7,207 bases of DNA, taken from the IMG/VR virus record IMGVR_UViG_2703718769_000012; one strand, 5' to 3'. The notes beneath the pieces are model-generated. The model was given only the letters and a program-made list of their open reading frames with translations. It searched no databases and was not told the DNA's origin. Source of the stretch: a virus (taxonomy: Duplodnaviria > Heunggongvirae > Uroviricota > Caudoviricetes). Made by a program: the position numbers and the translations under genes. The stretch's first letter is position 1. Each line of letters opens with the position of its first letter. Shown piece after piece: positions 1 through 6,369 of this stretch.

Positions 1-177
1 ATGATCTGGCAGCCTGAGTTCACAGATAAAACACTCTCCAGGAAAATCGGGGCGGTTCAAAATCTTAATCAGGAAAAGTATGCTAACCATTGTGGTGAAG
101 TGCAGGTTTGCTGCATGAATAGTTTTACAGCAGAAGCTAACTGCTGGCATGGCAAAACAAAGTGCGTAAGTGGATGA
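1..177 (+). CDS. Short Cys/His-rich ORF (58 codons from window position 1, TGA at 175-177), possibly the 3' end of a gene truncated by the window edge
   Basis: Open frame from base 1: MIWQPEFTDK...HCGEVQVCC...CWHGKTKCVSG. It lies just upstream of the lysis cassette, where lambdoid phages carry the late regulator Q, but I do not recognise the sequence as Q. The ATG at position 1 may be coincidental. Confidence 0.35.
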   Translation: MIWQPEFTDKTLSRKIGAVQNLNQEKYANHCGEVQVCCMNSFTAEANCWHGKTKCVSG

Positions 178-202
178 CTCCCACAAAAAGCACCACAATC
201 TC

Positions 203-226
203 AAACCCGCTCAGGCGGGTTTTTTA
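203..226 (+). terminator. Rho-independent terminator
   Basis: Hairpin CCCGC-tcag-GCGGG (206-219) followed by a run of six T (220-225), 26 nt after the upstream ORF stop. Could be the end of the upstream gene or a tR'-like late terminator. Confidence 0.7.
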
Positions 227-284
227 TTATCTGCTTTAAATATATTATTAAAATATAAAAAATACTTGTTACTAATAAAATCAA

Positions 285-455
285 TCAGGCTACAGCTTTA
301 AGATTTGTCTGGAATACTTTGTTGCAATGAGGGCAGATCAAAAGGGCACCTTTTTGTACTCTTGAAAAACTGTGTTCTGACTCTTGGGTGCAGTTTGGGC
401 AGGAACATTTAACGAGATAATTACGGCGTGATTTTGAGTTTTTACGTTCTGACAT
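285..455 (-). CDS. Small zinc-ribbon protein, 56 aa from the internal Met (the ORF track extends it to 506)
   Basis: Minus-strand ORF with a CxCxxC ... CxxC motif (KCSCPNCTQESEHSFSRVQKGALLICPHCNKVF). The internal ATG at 453-455 is preceded by AGGAAA with about 7 nt spacing; the ATG at 504-506 has no Shine-Dalgarno. A TTGAAA -35-like hexamer lies upstream on the minus strand. No homology search was done. Confidence 0.45.
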   Translation of the reverse strand: MSERKNSKSRRNYLVKCSCPNCTQESEHSFSRVQKGALLICPHCNKVFQTNLKAVA

Positions 456-674
456 AGGCTTTTCCTGTATAAATGGCCGTATACAGTACACTAAATATGA
501 AAACATTTCTCGTATTATTATTTTATATATGACTTTCTTTCAAAATAATTACCCACATTTTTAATGTGTATGTTTTTTTAGCGCCGTTGAGAACAACGTG
601 TGCTGTCAAAACTACCCCGTAGACTCCGATCTTTTCAAACATATTGCACCATCCGTGTACATCGGGGTGAGGAT

Positions 675-890
675 ATGAAATCAATGGATAAGTTAACAAC
701 AGGTGTTGCCTATGGCACATCGGCGGGTAATGCTGGTTTCTGGGCATTGCAGTTACTCGATAAAGTAACTCCGTCACAGTGGGCTGCAATCGGTGTGCTG
801 GGTAGCCTGGTTTTTGGCCTGCTGACGTATCTGACAAATCTTTATTTCAAGATTAAAGAAGACAGGCGTAAGGCTGCGAGAGGAGAGTAA
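675..890 (+). CDS. essQ: Phage-21-type class II holin (pinholin) with dual-start motif
   Basis: 71 aa, MKSMDK... gives two starts (Met1 and Met4, antiholin/holin). TMD1 is Gly/Ala-rich ([22 protein letters not shown]-like), TMD2 is [23 protein letters not shown], with a charged C-terminus [13 protein letters not shown]. Closely matches my memory of S21. The ORF track start at 600 is an upstream extension. Confidence 0.9.
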
Positions 891-894
891 TCCA

Positions 895-1202
895 ATGACT
901 CAAGACTATGAACTGGTTGTGAAAGGAGTCCGTAATTTTGAGAATAAAGTTACGGTAACTGTAGCCTTACAGGACAAAGAACGCTTTGACGGTGAAATTT
1001 TTGACCTGGATGTCGCCATGGACCGTGTTGAAGGAGCTGCGCTGGAGTTTTATGAGGCAGCAGCCAGAAGGAGCGTCCGGCAAGTCTTCCTGGAAGTAGC
1101 AGAAAAATTGTCAGAAAAAGTTGAGTCTTATCTGCAGCATCAGTACTCCTTTAAGATTGAAAATCCTGCCAATAAGCACGAGCGTCCTCATCATAAATAT
1201 CT

Positions 1203-1206
<4 letters not shown>
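895..1206 (+). CDS. ydfR: DUF1327-family prophage protein (YdfR-like), function unknown
   Basis: 103-aa ORF starting 4 nt after the holin stop, with its stop overlapping the endolysin start (ATGA at 1203-1206). Same length and position as ydfR in K-12 Qin (from memory). Confidence 0.75.
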
Positions 1207-2230
<1,024 letters not shown>

Positions 2231-2412
2231 GGTAATATTAAATCGGAACATTTACATCGCGGAATGTAAAATTTAAATAAAAAGGACTCTTCCATGAGCC
2301 AAAATTCCTGAAATCTTAAGGGTAAGATAAAAGGTCTTAATCAGAATGACACGTTTTATTAATAAATAAAGCTATTCTTTCATTGCTGTGTTTTTCTTTA
2401 CAAAAGTAATCC

Positions 2413-2592
2413 TTGCTATGGGTGGTTAATCATGCGTTAATGGTGTTCTGGTTTGTTACAAATTTATCTGAAGCAGTCATTGTTATAATTTTATTATTTG
2501 TACCTCTTGAGATTTCCTTGTTGGTTTTTCTCTCTGATATTTTTTTTCGGACCATTCTGCCCAAGGGCTAATTTCTTCAAAAGGTAATAATT
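2413..2592 (+). promoter_or_regulatory. cspI promoter and long cspA-type 5' leader with cold-box-like element
   Basis: Candidate sigma70 promoter: -35 TTGCTA (2413-2418), 17-bp spacer, TGn-extended -10 GTTAAT (2436-2441), predicted start near 2448 and leader about 145 nt. A second candidate is TGtTATAAT at 2481-2489. The leader start (GGTTTGTTACA...AAGCAGTC) resembles the cspA cold-box region, and AAGGTAATAATT precedes the ATG. Start sites are not determinable from sequence alone. Confidence 0.4.
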
Positions 2593-2805
2593 ATGTCTAA
2601 CAAAATGACTGGTTTAGTGAAATGGTTTAACCCTGAAAAAGGTTTTGGTTTCATCACGCCGAAAGATGGCAGCAAAGATGTGTTTGTCCATTTCTCAGCA
2701 ATTCAGAGCAACGATTTCAAAACATTAACTGAGAATCAGGAAGTTGAATTTGGTATTGAGAACGGACCTAAAGGTCCTGCCGCTGTTCATGTAGTGGCGC
2801 TTTGA
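2593..2805 (+). CDS. cspI: Cold-shock protein, CspA family (CspI)
   Basis: 70 aa, [38 protein letters not shown]...: cold-shock domain with RNP1 (KGFGFI) and RNP2 (VFVHF) motifs. Matches CspI as I recall it. AAGG Shine-Dalgarno 8 nt upstream. Confidence 0.95.
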
Positions 2806-2815
2806 GGTAGACAAT

Positions 2816-3004
2816 ATTACAAACCATATTCACTTTAGATGCCCGTGTTGTCATGGTTCCCAGTATAGAACATCATCTTTTGATGTTTCTGACATGAATC
2901 CTTTCGGGGCAAAATGTATCTTTTGTAAATCAATGATGATTACATTTGATAATATTTCACAATACTTAAATGCCAGCCGTCTGTCGTTGGATTTAAAAAA
3001 GTGA
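2816..3004 (+). CDS. Possible small zinc-ribbon protein with no canonical start codon (AUU start candidate, or frameshifted pseudogene)
   Basis: Frame open from 2795 to TGA 3002-3004, with CxxC-(21)-CxxC (RCPCCHGSQYRTSSFDVSDMNPFGAKCIFCKS). No in-frame ATG/GTG/TTG before the first Cys pair. GAGG (2804-2807, overlapping the cspI stop) sits 8 nt before an in-frame ATT at 2816, giving 62 aa. An ATG at 2839-2841 is out of frame by 1 nt across a CCC run. A terminator follows immediately. Confidence 0.3.
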   Translation: MTNHIHFRCPCCHGSQYRTSSFDVSDMNPFGAKCIFCKSMMITFDNISQYLNASRLSLDLKK

Positions 3005-3010
3005 AAATGA

Positions 3011-3032
3011 AGGCTCCTTCGGGAGCTTTTTT
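3011..3032 (+). terminator. Rho-independent terminator with UUCG tetraloop
   Basis: GGCTCC-ttcg-GGAGC hairpin (3012-3026) followed by TTTTTT (3027-3032), 7 nt after the zinc-ribbon ORF stop. Likely ends the cspI transcript. Confidence 0.75.
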
Positions 3033-3076
3033 GCTTGGTGTCTATTCGATGGATACTCACATACTACGGTAACATC

Positions 3077-3307
3077 ATGAAAAAAATCATAGTTTTTTTT
3101 AACTCTGAACCAGCAGTGGTAGTGCCAGCGATGACTGGAGTTAACACCATCATGCGTGAATATCCAAATGGCGAAAAAACACACCTTACTGTAATGGCCG
3201 CAGGGTTTCCATCTCTGACCGGAGATCATAAAGTCATTTATGTAGCCGCGGATCGACATGTTACTTCAGAAGAAATTCTGGAAGCAGCAATAAGGCTCTT
3301 GAGTTGA
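3077..3307 (+). CDS. ynfN: Small protein of the cold-shock cargo module (YnfN-like); start uncertain
   Basis: 76 codons from ATG 3077 (MKKIIVFFNSEPAVVVPAMTG...). Alternative starts are 3131 and 3152; the 3152 form is 51 aa, the length I recall for K-12 YnfN. Sits between cspI and gnsB as ynfN does in Qin. No strong Shine-Dalgarno for any start. Symbol rests on synteny and length, not recalled sequence. Confidence 0.5.
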   Translation: MKKIIVFFNSEPAVVVPAMTGVNTIMREYPNGEKTHLTVMAAGFPSLTGDHKVIYVAADRHVTSEEILEAAIRLLS

Positions 3308-3407
3308 TTTGATGCTATTGCATTGATAATTCAGGAAAATTCTCTTTGTCTGTTTGTGTAAAATTTAGACTATCGTATGTTGATTATTGCGATGTTTCAT
3401 CTTATCT

Positions 3408-3430
3408 TTTACACGTTTGCACCATATAAT
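3408..3430 (+). promoter_or_regulatory. Candidate promoter for gnsB
   Basis: Consensus -10 TATAAT at 3425-3430, about 48 nt upstream of the gnsB start. The -35 is poor (TTTACA at 3408-3413 is only 11 bp away). Sequence-only prediction. Confidence 0.3.
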
Positions 3431-3478
3431 CGACTTACTGTGTAACTGGAAAGTCATAACAGACTAAAAGAGGAAATG

Positions 3479-3652
3479 ATGAATATTGAAAACTTAAAAA
3501 CAAAAGCAGAAGCAGATATTTCTGAATATATAACAAAAAAAATTATTGAACTTAAGAAAAAGACCGGGAAAGAAGTTACCAGTATTCAGTTTACCGCACG
3601 GGAAAAAATGACGGGTCTTGAAAGCTATGATGTCAAGATTAATTTAATCTGA
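3479..3652 (+). CDS. gnsB: GnsA/GnsB-family small protein
   Basis: 57 aa, MNIENLKTKAEADISEYITKKIIELKKKTGKEVTSIQFTAREKMTGLESYDVKINLI. AAGAGGA Shine-Dalgarno 5-6 nt before the second of two adjacent ATGs. TAREKMTGLESYDVKI matches my memory of GnsA/GnsB. Not in the ORF track (under its length cutoff). Confidence 0.85.
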   Translation: MNIENLKTKAEADISEYITKKIIELKKKTGKEVTSIQFTAREKMTGLESYDVKINLI

Positions 3653-3678
3653 TGTATTCAATAATAAAATTTATCCAT

Positions 3679-3704
3679 AAACCTCGTTTTTACGGGGTTT
3701 TGTT
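3679..3704 (+). terminator. Rho-independent terminator downstream of gnsB
   Basis: Stem CCTCG/CGGGG with 6-nt loop (3682-3697), followed by TTTTGTT. Lies between the convergent genes gnsB and ydfO. Confidence 0.55.
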
Positions 3705-3766
3705 ATATTTGAATGGTTCCGAATATCTAAATCACAATTGTTGATGGTTTTTATTAAACCAATGCA

Positions 3767-3795
3767 GTCCGGCTCAGGAGTGAGAGAAGCCGGAC
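3767..3795 (-). terminator. Perfect 8-bp inverted repeat just downstream of ydfO (possible terminator or structured 3' end)
   Basis: GTCCGGCT (3767-3774) and AGCCGGAC (3788-3795) with a 13-nt loop, 9 nt after the ydfO stop. No clear U-tract on the minus strand, so the terminator role is uncertain. Confidence 0.35.
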
Positions 3796-3803
3796 GTTAT
3801 GGT

Positions 3804-4214
3804 TTAGCGTGGTAAGATCTGTGTAGTTTTCTGGATGCTTTCAGTAAATAGTAATGAATTATCAAAGGTATAGTAATATCTTTTTTGTTCGTGGATATTT
3901 GTAACCCACCGAAAAACTCCTGCTTTAGCAAGGTTTCTTCTGTATTCCTGAAATGTGATCTCTCTGGATTTCAGCTTATTAGAGGTCGTTTCTATAAGAT
4001 GCCTATCCTTTGAAAATTTGACAGACACAATGTTTTTTAGGCCCTTTAATAACACTGTATTATCATTTTTTAATACAATATGAACATTCTCTGTGGCTAA
4101 ATAGTAAATGTAATGTGAGACATTGTGACGTTTTAGCTCAGAATAAAACCATTGATAGTTTAAATCGTTTCGAACTTTATCAAATATTTGTTTAAAAATG
4201 ACTACCTGATCCAT
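3804..4214 (-). CDS. ydfO: DUF1398-family prophage protein (YdfO-like), function unknown
   Basis: 136 aa from the ATG at 4212-4214 ([23 protein letters not shown]...), which has GGAAGG 7 nt upstream. The ORF track start at 4229 adds 5 codons. Matches YdfO of Qin in length and, as I recall, sequence. Confidence 0.8.
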
Positions 4215-4439
4215 AGATAAACCTTCCATGTGATATGAGGGGGCGTAGTCTGCACGATTATCTAAATTGCTTCAATCTGGTCTGACCTGTTTTCTGAGCA
4301 ATTCAGTAATGTCACTCTTTTCTTTGTTTGCTTCAGAAGAAACTCTTTTTTCTGAGCACAGTCTCCGGCGGCAGGCTTCAATGACCCAGGCTGAGAAATT
4401 GATTATTTGACGTGGTTTGATGGCCTCCACGCACGTTGT

Positions 4440-4689: not shown

Positions 4690-5235
4690 ATGGAAGTCAA
4701 CAAAAAGCAGCTGGCTGACATTTTCGGTGCGAGTATCCGTACCATTCAGAACTGGCAGGAACAGGGAATGCCCGTTCTGCGAGGCGGTGGCAAGGGTAAT
4801 GAGGTGCTTTATGATTCTGCCGCCGTCATAAAATGGTATGCCGAAAGGGATGCTGAAATTGAGAACGAAAAGCTGCGCCGGGAAGTTGAAGAACTGCGGC
4901 AGGCCAGCGAGACAGATCTCCAGCCAGGGACTATTGAGTACGAACGCCATCGACTTACGCGTGCGCAGGCCGACGCACAGGAGCTGAAAAATGCCAGAGA
5001 CTCCGCTGAAGTGGTGGAAACCGCATTCTGTACTTTCGTGCTGTCGCGGATCGCAGGTGAAATTGCCAGTATTCTCGACGGGATCCCCCTGTCGGTGCAG
5101 CGGCGTTTTCCGGAACTGGAAAACCGACATGTTGATTTCCTGAAACGGGATATCATCAAAGCCATGAACAAAGCAGCCGCGCTGGATGAACTGATAACGG
5201 GGCGCACTTTGACGGTGACCAGAGCGGCACGGTGA
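4690..5235 (+). CDS. nohA: Terminase small subunit, lambda Nu1 homologue with a replaced C-terminus
   Basis: 181 aa, MEVNKKQLADIFGASIRTIQNWQEQGMPVLRGGGKGNEVLYD... matches lambda Nu1 as I recall it through ...KAMNKAAALDELI. The last ~12 residues (TGRTLTVTRAAR) are read out of frame from J-derived DNA. Sits directly downstream of cosB. Confidence 0.9.
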   Translation: MEVNKKQLADIFGASIRTIQNWQEQGMPVLRGGGKGNEVLYDSAAVIKWYAERDAEIENEKLRREVEELRQASETDLQPGTIEYERHRLTRAQADAQELKNARDSAEVVETAFCTFVLSRIAGEIASILDGIPLSVQRRFPELENRHVDFLKRDIIKAMNKAAALDELITGRTLTVTRAAR

Positions 5236-5497
5236 ATGGTGTCACGCCGCCAGCAGTTCAGCACCTGACCGCAGAAGTCACCGCAGACAGCGGGGAATAC
5301 CAGGTGCTGGCGCGCTGGGACACGCCGAAGGTGGTGAAGGGGGTGAGCTTTATGCTTCGCCTGACCGTGGCAGCGGACGACGGCAGTGAGCGGTTGGTCA
5401 GCACGGCCCGGACGACGGAAACCACATATCGCTTCACGCAGCTGGCGCTGGGAAATTACAGGCTGACAGTCCGGGCGGTAAATGCATGGGGACAGCC
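5199..5497 (+). pseudogene. Internal fragment of tail host-specificity gene J (about 100 codons), no 5' or 3' part
   Basis: Frame beginning near 5199 reads ...GAHFDGDQSGT(V)NGVTPPAVQHLTAEVTADSGEYQVLARWDTPKVVKGVSF...[23 protein letters not shown], which I recognise as an internal stretch of lambda gpJ. It is out of frame with Nu1 upstream and stf downstream. The ORF-track start at 5232 is a GTG within this fragment. Confidence 0.7.
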
Positions 5498-5794
5498 GGT
5501 GCACATACCCATTCGATGACATTTGTTTCAGGTGGTTCCAGTGGTGCTCCGGGAAGTGGATCACCTGATTATTCTAAATACAGTGTTAACACTTCTTCTG
5601 CAGGCGCTCATACGCACTCTGTATCGGGTACTGCTGCAAGCGCAGGTGCACACGCACATACTGTCGGTATTGGTGCTCATACGCACTCCGTTGCGATTGG
5701 TTCACATGGACATACCATCACCGTTAACGCTGCTGGTAACGCGGAAAACACCGTCAAAAACATCGCATTTAACTATATTGTGAGGCTTGCGTAA
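5486..5794 (+). pseudogene. 3'-terminal fragment of side tail fibre gene stf (C-terminal ~100 codons)
   Basis: Ends ...[32 protein letters not shown], the lambda Stf C-terminus as I recall it, with GAHTHS/GAHAHT histidine repeats. Stop overlaps the tfa start (TAATG). The ATG at 5486 lies inside J-derived sequence and has no convincing Shine-Dalgarno. Confidence 0.75.
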
Positions 5795-6369
5795 TGGCAT
5801 TCAGAATGAGTGAACAACCACGGACCATAAAAATTTATAATCTGCTGGCCGGAACTAATGAATTTATTGGTGAAGGTGACGCATATATTCCGCCTCATAC
5901 AGGTCTGCCAGCAAACAGTACCGATATTGCACCGCCAGATATTCCGGCAGGCTTCGTGGCTGTTTTCAACAGTGATGAGGCATCGTGGCATCTCGTTGAA
6001 GATCATCGGGGTAAAACGGTTTATGACGTGGCATCAGGGGACGCGTTATTTATTTCTGAACTCGGTCCGTTACCGGAAAATGTTACCTGGTTATCGCCGG
6101 GAGGGGAATATCAGAAGTGGAACGGCACAGCCTGGGTGAAGGATACGGAAGCAGAAAAACTGTTCCGGATCCGGGAGGCGGAAGAAACAAAAAACAGCCT
6201 GATGCAGATAGCCAGTGAGCATATAGCGCCGCTTCAGGATGCTGTGGATCTGGAGATCGCAACGGAGGAAGAAACCTTGTTGCTGGAAGCCTGGAAAAAG
6301 TATCGGGTGTTGCTGAACCGTGTTGATACATCAACTGCACCGGATATTGAATGGCCAGCACTGCCGTAG
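5794..6369 (+). CDS. tfaQ: Tail fibre assembly protein (Tfa)
   Basis: 191 aa, [54 protein letters not shown]..., near-identical to lambda Tfa as I recall it. Coupled to the stf fragment by the TAATG overlap. Confidence 0.9.

Follow-up and report, generated by a model that had tools for sequence, protein, structure and literature searches.

The ydfR gene of a Qin-type lysis cassette: an accessory DUF1327 gene with a probable deletion-derived endolysin overlap and a candidate link to host RNase E

The ydfR gene lies within a Qin-type lysis cassette

The window analyzed here is a stretch of 7,207 nucleotides (nt) from the IMG/VR virus record IMGVR_UViG_2703718769_000012 (Caudoviricetes), and our subject is the open reading frame (ORF) at 895-1206, which encodes a protein of 103 amino acids (aa) that is 100% identical to YdfR of Escherichia coli K-12 (b1555, UniProt P76160). 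The ORF listing and the family scans place a lambdoid lysis cassette on the plus strand of the window, with the gene layout of the cryptic prophage Qin and a cassette of the Qin type, essQ-ydfR-rrrQ-rzpQ. Positions 58-4400 align with the genome of E. coli K-12 MG1655 at 99.98% identity, and K-12 YdfR has the same essQ, rrrQ and rzpQ neighbours, with no difference at the protein level. ydfR is a known, catalogued gene ('YdfR family protein', DUF1327), belonging to a family without assigned function. The features of the cassette are the following.

675-890, plus strand: holin of the S21 family, essQ/essD type, 71 aa, with the MKSM dual-start motif (the protein begins MKSMDK); PF04971 at 116.7 bits, holin families phrog_9876 and phrog_20, essQ in the K-12 annotation
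878-887, plus strand: Shine-Dalgarno (SD) sequence of ydfR, GAGAGGAGAG, within the 3' end of the holin gene; free energy (dG) of the anti-SD duplex -9.5 kcal/mol
895-1206, plus strand: ydfR, 103 aa, ATG start, DUF1327/YdfR family; PF07041 profile, identical to K-12 b1555 / P76160
895-1110, plus strand: conserved N-terminal domain (N-domain), aa 1-72, motif DRxEGAxLEFYEA; from alignments, AlphaFold2 and the ratio of nonsynonymous to synonymous substitution rates (dN/dS)
1111-1192, plus strand: Qin-type C-terminal segment, aa 73-99, common to the 174-aa and 206-aa forms of the family; phrog_34145 match, sequences P0023 and P0240, collinear with locus L167 at 91% identity
1193-1202, plus strand: probable deletion junction (1192/1197), then the endolysin leader without SD sequence, ATAAATATCT, which here encodes the C-terminal residues H-K-Y-L of YdfR; from the alignment to L167
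1203-1206, plus strand: ATGA, in which the rrrQ start (1203-1205) overlaps the ydfR stop TGA (1204-1206); from the sequence, found in 79 of 80 close loci
1203-1736, plus strand: rrrQ, 177-aa lysozyme of the Qin/933W type with a Gly/Ala-rich N-terminus resembling a signal-anchor-release (SAR) segment and the residues E35-x8-D44-x5-T50; PF00959 at 84.5 bits, endolysin family phrog_7
1733-2230, plus strand: rzpQ, Rz-like i-spanin, GTG start in a GTGA overlap with rrrQ, own SD with a dG of -8.4; PF10721 (DUF2514), phrog_312
1926-2180, plus strand: rzoQ, Rz1-like lipoprotein inside the +1 frame of rzpQ; from frame translation and the K-12 annotation mapped through the 99.98% alignment

The holin gene ends with the TAA at 888-890, its final codons containing the SD sequence of ydfR, and ydfR starts 4 nt after this stop, a junction kept in 78 of the 79 close loci. 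Because no promoter- or terminator-like site was found between 550 and 2280, we read the holin, ydfR, endolysin and spanin genes as one unit, which by analogy to lambdoid late operons would be Q-dependent. The original prediction, made from the sequence alone, had described a gene wedged between holin and endolysin, an ATGA at 1203-1206 and an endolysin without an SD sequence, and this anatomy is confirmed. Its description of the product as an acidic, non-membrane protein also agrees with our calculations, although the protein is only mildly acidic: the isoelectric point is 5.56 for the whole of YdfR and 4.67 for its N-terminal 75 aa, and there is no hydrophobic stretch, the highest Kyte-Doolittle mean over 19 residues being 0.67.

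The ORF at 895-1206 is a real gene and not a chance ORF, since it matches the DUF1327 profile PF07041 with 179.9 bits (cut-off 25, model positions 1-93 of 93 covered), shows N-domain dN/dS values of 0.17-0.57 between lineages, and is kept, as 103 codons plus the ATGA, in 79 of 80 close relatives. The dN/dS values indicate purifying selection on the N-domain. A second profile, phrog_34145, is matched at 4e-58 over positions 1-99 of 174.

The family is very small, with 267 clusters among 5.8 billion proteins and 57 matching representatives among 1.84 billion. A contig scan with one genome per species returned only Escherichia, Shigella and two metagenome-assembled genomes that carry the labels Veillonella parvula and Bacillota and are presumably mis-binned, and it used a single narrow peptide pattern that says little on distant relatives. 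Of 5426 complete E. coli genomes, 4599 contain the cassette or part of it and 2089 contain at least 80% of it; this uncharacterized K-12 'y' gene, or the cassette around it, is found in the majority of sequenced E. coli genomes. Among deposited phages, 100 records carry a DUF1327 gene, including mEp460, 2H10, Perceval, BP-4795 and many Stx1a/Stx2c phages; a Qin-type cassette with a 100% identical YdfR occurs in the complete phage genome PhiR42_1, and copies with 97-98% identity in two other phages. A literature search on essQ/rrrQ and on the PhiR phages returned nothing useful. Many otherwise identical E. coli cassettes are broken by IS1, IS3 or ISVsa5 in or beside rrrQ or rzpQ (for example loci L005 and L039), and a frameshift or truncation affects several ydfR copies (25, 85 or 129 aa); both observations fit the decay of lysis genes in resident prophages.

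ydfR is an optional passenger of the cassette

The comparison with phages 21 and 933W shows that the slot filled by ydfR can be empty. Both phages share with the window an S21-type pinholin, a SAR-type endolysin and overlapping or tightly spaced genes in the order S-R-Rz/Rz1; in both, however, the endolysin gene directly follows the holin gene and uses an SD sequence in the holin 3' end. The original prediction had drawn the same contrast with phage 21, correctly: in loci of the R21 type the holin stop and the endolysin start overlap as TAATG, so that the two genes adjoin directly. RrrQ is not an R21 orthologue, since it is about 33% identical to R21 and 89% identical to R of 933W, and it belongs to the Qin/933W type. 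In 933W, S and R of the same holin and endolysin types are separated by a 4-nt spacer without any DUF1327 gene, and the endolysin leader has a dG of -8.5 kcal/mol. An alignment of 933W with BP-4795 loses homology at the start codon that follows S and regains it about 9 codons inside R.

On a larger scale, 355 phage records have an RrrQ-type endolysin at 80% identity or more, compared with the 100 that have a DUF1327 gene, and among 80 close holin loci 49 carry a DUF1327 gene, while 27 carry an R21-type endolysin and none. The gene thus behaves in one respect like a moron, being present or absent between otherwise collinear neighbours (933W versus BP-4795, and the tail-module insertions described below); it has neither its own promoter or terminator nor a deviant content of guanine and cytosine (0.44 for ydfR, 0.46-0.51 for its neighbours), and we discarded the idea of a self-contained moron on these grounds. 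ydfR is almost certainly an optional passenger of the lysis cassette, transcribed together with the lysis genes.

The overlap with the endolysin gene is probably a deletion scar

Among the Escherichia relatives inspected, the DUF1327 gene always starts 3-4 nt after the stop of an S21-type holin or shortly after a holin of family PF16080, and only its distal end varies in position. The gap from the end of the DUF1327 gene to the endolysin is 50 nt in BP-4795, 55 nt in mEp460, 321 nt in 2H10, 359 nt in the locus with the 174-aa form and 452 nt in Stx2-86; only the Qin-type gene overlaps the endolysin. The longer proteins of the family (mEp460_055, BP-4795 ORF47, 2H10 gp52 and Stx2-86 orf5; PHROGs 2735, 406, 2091, 1085 and 34145) share with the window the N-domain, the start 4 nt after the holin stop and the SD-less endolysin leader, and differ from it in having other C-termini (104-333 aa in total), in ending 50-450 nt before the endolysin and, often, in having a convergent gene in the gap.

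The origin of this difference can be read from the alignment with the locus of the 174-aa form, L167. Window positions 861-1192 are collinear with L167 2539-2870 at 91% identity, and window positions 1197-1254 align with L167 3451-3508; the alignment jumps from L167 2870 to 3451, and about 580 bp are therefore missing in the window. A microhomology, TCCTCAT/TCCTGAT, lies at the junction. Such a deletion would have taken the distal 75 codons of the 174-aa form, the convergent gene of family phrog_2572 and most of the endolysin leader, and would have fused ydfR codon 99 to what was left of the leader, which would have created the ATGA overlap and supplied the final four codons (HKYL). Judged from these alignments, it is nearly certain that the overlap is a by-product of the deletion of about 580 bp and not a conserved design. 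We place the identity of the gene as ydfR and its accessory nature at that same level of near certainty.

The endolysin leader lacks an SD sequence with or without the overlap

Over the 21 nt upstream of the endolysin start, the anti-SD dG is +1.2 kcal/mol, against a window-wide median of -2.7 and values of -7.5 for the holin, -9.5 for ydfR and -8.4 for rzpQ, which makes the SD sequence of ydfR the strongest in the cassette. The same kind of leader, ATAAATATC(C/T)ATGA, precedes the endolysin in every DUF1327-bearing cassette examined, where its dG is +0.6. It stands there uncoupled in mEp460, 2H10, BP-4795, Stx2-86, the locus of the 174-aa form and a cassette with a PF16080 holin: in these, only trivial ORFs of 0-24 aa end at the endolysin start or up to 12 nt from it, and a 37-aa ORF of Stx2-86 stops 19 nt upstream. 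Since the uncoupled leader is present in deposited phage genomes (mEp460, BP-4795, 2H10), the endolysin can probably be translated without coupling. The lack of an SD sequence is accordingly a property of the DUF1327 cassette, to judge from its sequence distribution, and not of the overlap. In mechanistic terms, a DUF1327 cassette lying between an S21-type pinholin and a Qin/933W-type SAR endolysin would take over the strong SD sequence at the holin end, and its insertion would leave an A/U-rich leader without SD sequence in front of the endolysin. On this evidence, routine translation from such a leader is likely for a widespread endolysin type, a point of relevance to the engineering of lysis cassettes.

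These results separate two parts of the coupling claim in the original prediction. With an overlapping stop and start and an SD-less endolysin, ribosomes that finish ydfR very probably re-initiate on rrrQ at the ATGA, and this re-initiation may raise the yield of RrrQ; that part stands. The stricter statement, that endolysin translation probably depends on that of ydfR, is not supported, given that the leader also occurs uncoupled with gaps of 50-452 nt, that the start region is unstructured and that the overlap appears to be a by-product of a deletion. No occluding RNA structure was found at the junction, which folds no better than shuffled sequence (z about -0.2), and a model of obligatory coupling through an occluding hairpin is ruled out by this result; the rrrQ start region is A/U-rich. 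The coupling is probably incidental and non-essential.

A stronger version of the coupling idea holds that the act of translating ydfR brings ribosomes to the SD-less rrrQ start and that the YdfR polypeptide itself is irrelevant. The ATGA overlap, the dG of +1.2 at rrrQ and the strong SD sequence of ydfR all agree with it, as does the neighbouring rrrQ/rzpQ junction, which also overlaps (GTGA). The overlap is retained in 79 of 80 close loci, but this conservation carries little weight because these loci are 98-100% identical. We consider this explanation unlikely: in several deposited phage genomes the leader precedes R without any upstream ORF ending at it, the region around the rrrQ start is unstructured, and purifying selection acts on the N-domain across uncoupled lineages.

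Upstream of the SD-less endolysin start of the uncoupled variants, at a distance of 10-12 nt, lies a short hairpin, CAGGGAUU...AAUCCUG (L003 3356-3384, L004 4220-4248, L002 3334-3362 and L176 about 5797-5825). Some of its sequence variation preserves the pairing, and it is absent in mEp460 and in the window; it might serve as a standby or processing site for endolysin translation.

A conserved N-domain with exchangeable C-termini

The family alignments show conservation limited to the first 72 residues or so, followed by C-termini that vary from 0 to about 260 aa. The invariant columns of the core are all present in YdfR (Y5, E6, V9-K10-G11, D43, E46-G47-A48 and L50-E51-F52-Y53-E54-A55). The AlphaFold2 model of YdfR contains three antiparallel strands (5-14, 18-27 and 33-43), a long helix (50-83) and a disordered tail, with a predicted local distance difference test (pLDDT) score, averaged in blocks of 10 residues, of 72-89 for residues 1-70 and below 50 from residue 79. 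The predicted fold of the N-domain is therefore of a beta3-alpha type.

Three kinds of C-terminus follow this domain in the family: none, in proteins of 71-76 aa; the Qin-type helix, in proteins of 103, 174 and 206 aa; and a linker, AAGLCEGDE...ITYKGKLPG, with coiled coils and a further domain, in proteins of 114-333 aa. The C-terminal domain of the long forms (residues 185-296 of P0151: ECNRPSFVVSGD...GRCMGYLQVAAEIEALASGAD...PGLTYLK) belongs to no Pfam family and also occurs alone, in abundant E. coli proteins of 213 aa without DUF1327 (P0176, P0189 and others). A low-confidence model suggests that it may be another beta3-alpha-alpha unit; the 296-aa long form was modelled poorly, with a pLDDT of 53. 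Profile searches of PDB sequences with the N-domain and long-form alignments gave no matches. A repetitive protein of 3128 aa (P0254), matched by phmmer, was dropped because it looks like a low-complexity or repeat artefact.

The N-domain is also found outside lysis cassettes. Stand-alone N-domain proteins of 76-94 aa, about 31-38% identical to YdfR, are encoded in the tail modules of lambda-like metagenomic phages, and the homology is backed by PF07041, by phrog_2735 at 2e-18 and by reciprocal tblastn. This arrangement was not found in the isolated phages of our collection. In most relatives, whether the DUF1327 gene lies in a lysis cassette or in a tail module, it is followed by a small convergent gene on the opposite strand. 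The coordinates, each in its own locus, are as follows.

L166 511-741, L170 4695-4925, L171 3788-4018 and L174 5001-5285: tail-module DUF1327 homologues, between gpM and gpL, gpL and gpK, or gpI and gpJ
L004 3817-4131, L167 3039-3320, L176 5465-5725, L170 4967-5515, L175 768-1328, L166 754-966, L174 5282-5506 and L189 1958-2218, minus strand: convergent genes

The convergent ORFs fall in PHROGs 2572, 1853, 18578 and 6806, which are phage families without known function, and none has a Pfam match. The PADLOC defence models gave no credible match to the DUF1327 proteins or their convergent neighbours; the sole hit, to HamA with an E-value of 0.005, was rejected as not credible. The pattern could reflect a two-gene accessory cassette or a hot-spot for cargo genes.

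A candidate link to RNase E

The one published experimental lead on the protein comes from a recent study (Gopel et al. 2026, PMC13232886), in which a two-hybrid screen against RNase G yielded a fragment comprising residues 1-72 of YdfR three times; this fragment gave stronger two-hybrid signals with RNase E constructs. In the same work, full-length YdfR interacted with Rne 1-597, and Strep-tagged YdfR co-purified Rne 1-598 together with DNase-resistant nucleic acid; overproduction of YdfR caused no growth defect and changed few transcripts, and ydfR reads were nearly absent from RNA sequencing (RNA-seq) under standard growth (PMC13232886). The study made no mention of the location of ydfR in a lysis cassette (PMC13232886). 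The fragment that interacts with RNase E coincides exactly with the conserved domain delimited by our alignments.

Phage proteins that target RNase E include gp0.7 of T7. Dip of phiKZ also belongs to this group (PMC4980113), and Srd of T4 is described as binding the N-terminal half of RNase E and stimulating decay (Qi et al. 2015, as cited in PMC13232886). Srd is, like YdfR, a small phage protein reported to bind the catalytic half of the enzyme; YdfR has no homology to the known phage modulators Srd and Dip.

Our preferred reading, to which we give about an even chance, is that ydfR is an accessory late gene whose overlap with rrrQ is a deletion scar and whose product binds a host factor and is not a lysis timer. 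The conserved domain of about 72 aa, with its predicted beta3-alpha fold, would bind a cytoplasmic host factor during late gene expression, and YdfR, a small phage product, would modulate RNA decay or serve as an adaptor in it and would have no part in the timing of lysis. As for the function itself, we propose, drawing on the literature and on our own inference, that YdfR is a late-expressed binder of RNase E, also of RNase G, and of RNA; we rank this proposal first because the interacting part equals the conserved domain and because of the T4 Srd precedent, while holding it with somewhat less than even confidence. More tentatively still, the DUF1327 N-domain may define a new family of binders of RNA and of the RNase E catalytic domain in temperate phages, expressed from late operons in lysis cassettes or tail modules, which would adjust the decay of RNA in the host (for instance through protection of the long late transcript or delivery of selected RNAs to RNase E) and whose variable C-termini would be interchangeable effectors. 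Were the link to RNase E true, the lambdoid phages would be a further group, after T4, T7 and phiKZ, that acts on the RNA decay machinery of the host.

Several points weigh against this reading. The interaction rests on one study with overproduced, tagged proteins, overproduction changed few transcripts, so that any effect on RNA decay is hypothetical, and the authors could not exclude a contaminating protein that retained RNA (PMC13232886). Across the examined loci of Escherichia phages and prophages, which include two unrelated holin families, the DUF1327 gene lies directly after the holin gene and before an RrrQ-type endolysin gene, a position that fits a lysis-linked role too. The coupling is predicted from the sequence, and the SD-less leader may perform worse in the window than in its native context. 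Finally, the ydfR mutant of the Keio collection is listed among the envelope-leaky strains, positive with chlorophenol red-beta-D-galactopyranoside (CPRG), in the supplement of Paradis-Bleau et al. 2014, where essQ and rrrQ are not listed (PMC3879167). This leakiness fits either the loss of an inhibitor or polar expression of rrrQ.

Alternative explanations

The original prediction had proposed a factor for lysis timing or lysis inhibition. In its developed form, this explanation gives YdfR a cytoplasmic target, either the tail of the pinholin or the SAR endolysin prior to its export, on which it would act in the manner of a chaperone or an antiholin cofactor and so set when lysis fires. Small soluble proteins encoded beside holin or endolysin genes are indeed known, such as RIII of T4, an antiholin cofactor, and Gp1 of mycobacteriophage Ms6, an endolysin chaperone encoded directly upstream of lysA; YdfR, small, mildly acidic and with a predicted C-terminal helix, also has the general character of secretion chaperones. 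Its gene is found between the holin and RrrQ-type endolysin genes with both holin families (PF04971 and PF16080), its translation, just after that of the holin, starts from the strongest SD sequence of the cassette, and the Keio mutant is leaky while essQ and rrrQ mutants are not listed (PMC3879167).

Nevertheless, we judge a cytoplasmic governor of pinholin/SAR-endolysin lysis improbable and less likely than a binder of RNase E. The gene is dispensable for the same S/R pair, as 933W shows, so that its linkage to holin and endolysin is not consistent; R does not co-vary with it, being 89-90% identical to RrrQ with or without a DUF1327 gene; distant homologues lie in tail modules, outside lysis cassettes; and conservation is confined to the N-domain, the C-terminus being freely exchanged or deleted. 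The protein has no membrane segment, and searches of Pfam, PHROGs, NCBIfam and PDB reveal no relationship to a known antiholin or lysis regulator such as S21-71, lambda S107, T4 RI or RIII, P1 LydB or Ms6 Gp1; it causes no growth effect on overproduction and is reported to bind RNase E (PMC13232886). The Keio phenotype has a simpler explanation, in which the kan cassette would read in the sense direction into rrrQ and rzpQ directly downstream; read-through into these lysozyme and spanin genes is plausible given that the rrrQ start overlaps the stop codon of ydfR, and the leakiness of the ydfR::kan mutant may reflect no more than lysozyme made from the gene downstream. Placing ydfR as a truncated passenger of the lysis cassette ahead of a SAR endolysin changes the reading of both the RNase E lead and the Keio phenotype.

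It could also be argued that the 103-aa product is an inert remnant, truncated in a defective prophage, without a function of its own and persisting by linkage to the lysis genes. YdfR is indeed truncated relative to the forms of 174, 206 and 268-333 aa, many family members in E. coli are frameshifted or cut, and Qin is cryptic, with ydfR reads almost absent from RNA-seq in standard growth (PMC13232886). We regard this as unlikely, since nothing is missing from the N-domain, proteins of 71-76 aa that consist of this domain alone are found elsewhere, the identical gene occurs in one complete phage genome and near-identical ones in two others, and the N-domain alone suffices for the reported RNase E interaction (PMC13232886).

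Least probable is a two-gene accessory cassette, in which the DUF1327 protein would work with or counteract the product of the convergent gene, for example as a late antidote to a protein expressed in the lysogen, the window keeping the orphaned half: a convergent ORF from recognized phage families does follow the DUF1327 gene in both lysis and tail contexts, but there is no fixed partner (the convergent genes form at least two sequence families plus four without a match elsewhere in the set), the defence and toxin models match none of them, the mEp460, BP-4795 and Qin types keep the DUF1327 gene without one, and a cargo hot-spot accounts equally well for the pattern.

The deletion origin of the overlap, the cassette-borne SD-less leader, the modular family, the tail-module homologues and the likely polar explanation of the Keio phenotype are new, and constitute useful corrections to the account of a known gene.

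Other features of the window

Downstream of the spanin genes lie cspI with its thermoregulator leader, nohA, tail-fibre fragments, tfa and the pin invertase. Relative to the Qin prophage of K-12, positions 1-57 and 5203-5605 of the window are unaligned and the remainder is 97.6-99.98% identical, the window having a different upstream junction and a different side-tail-fibre segment, which indicates an origin in a strain other than K-12. Between a terminator-like hairpin (203-222) and the holin gene, an ORF of the YnfU zinc-ribbon type (PF23499; 73 aa as listed, 56 aa in the K-12 annotation) lies at 285-506 on the minus strand; as it is antisense to the cassette, late transcription would run against it. 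Two Rfam matches scored above their gathering thresholds, the cspA thermoregulator at 2447-2832 (plus strand, 112.8 bits), over the cspI-like leader and coding region, and IS009 at 6137-6335 (plus strand, 221.5 bits), within the tfa-like gene.

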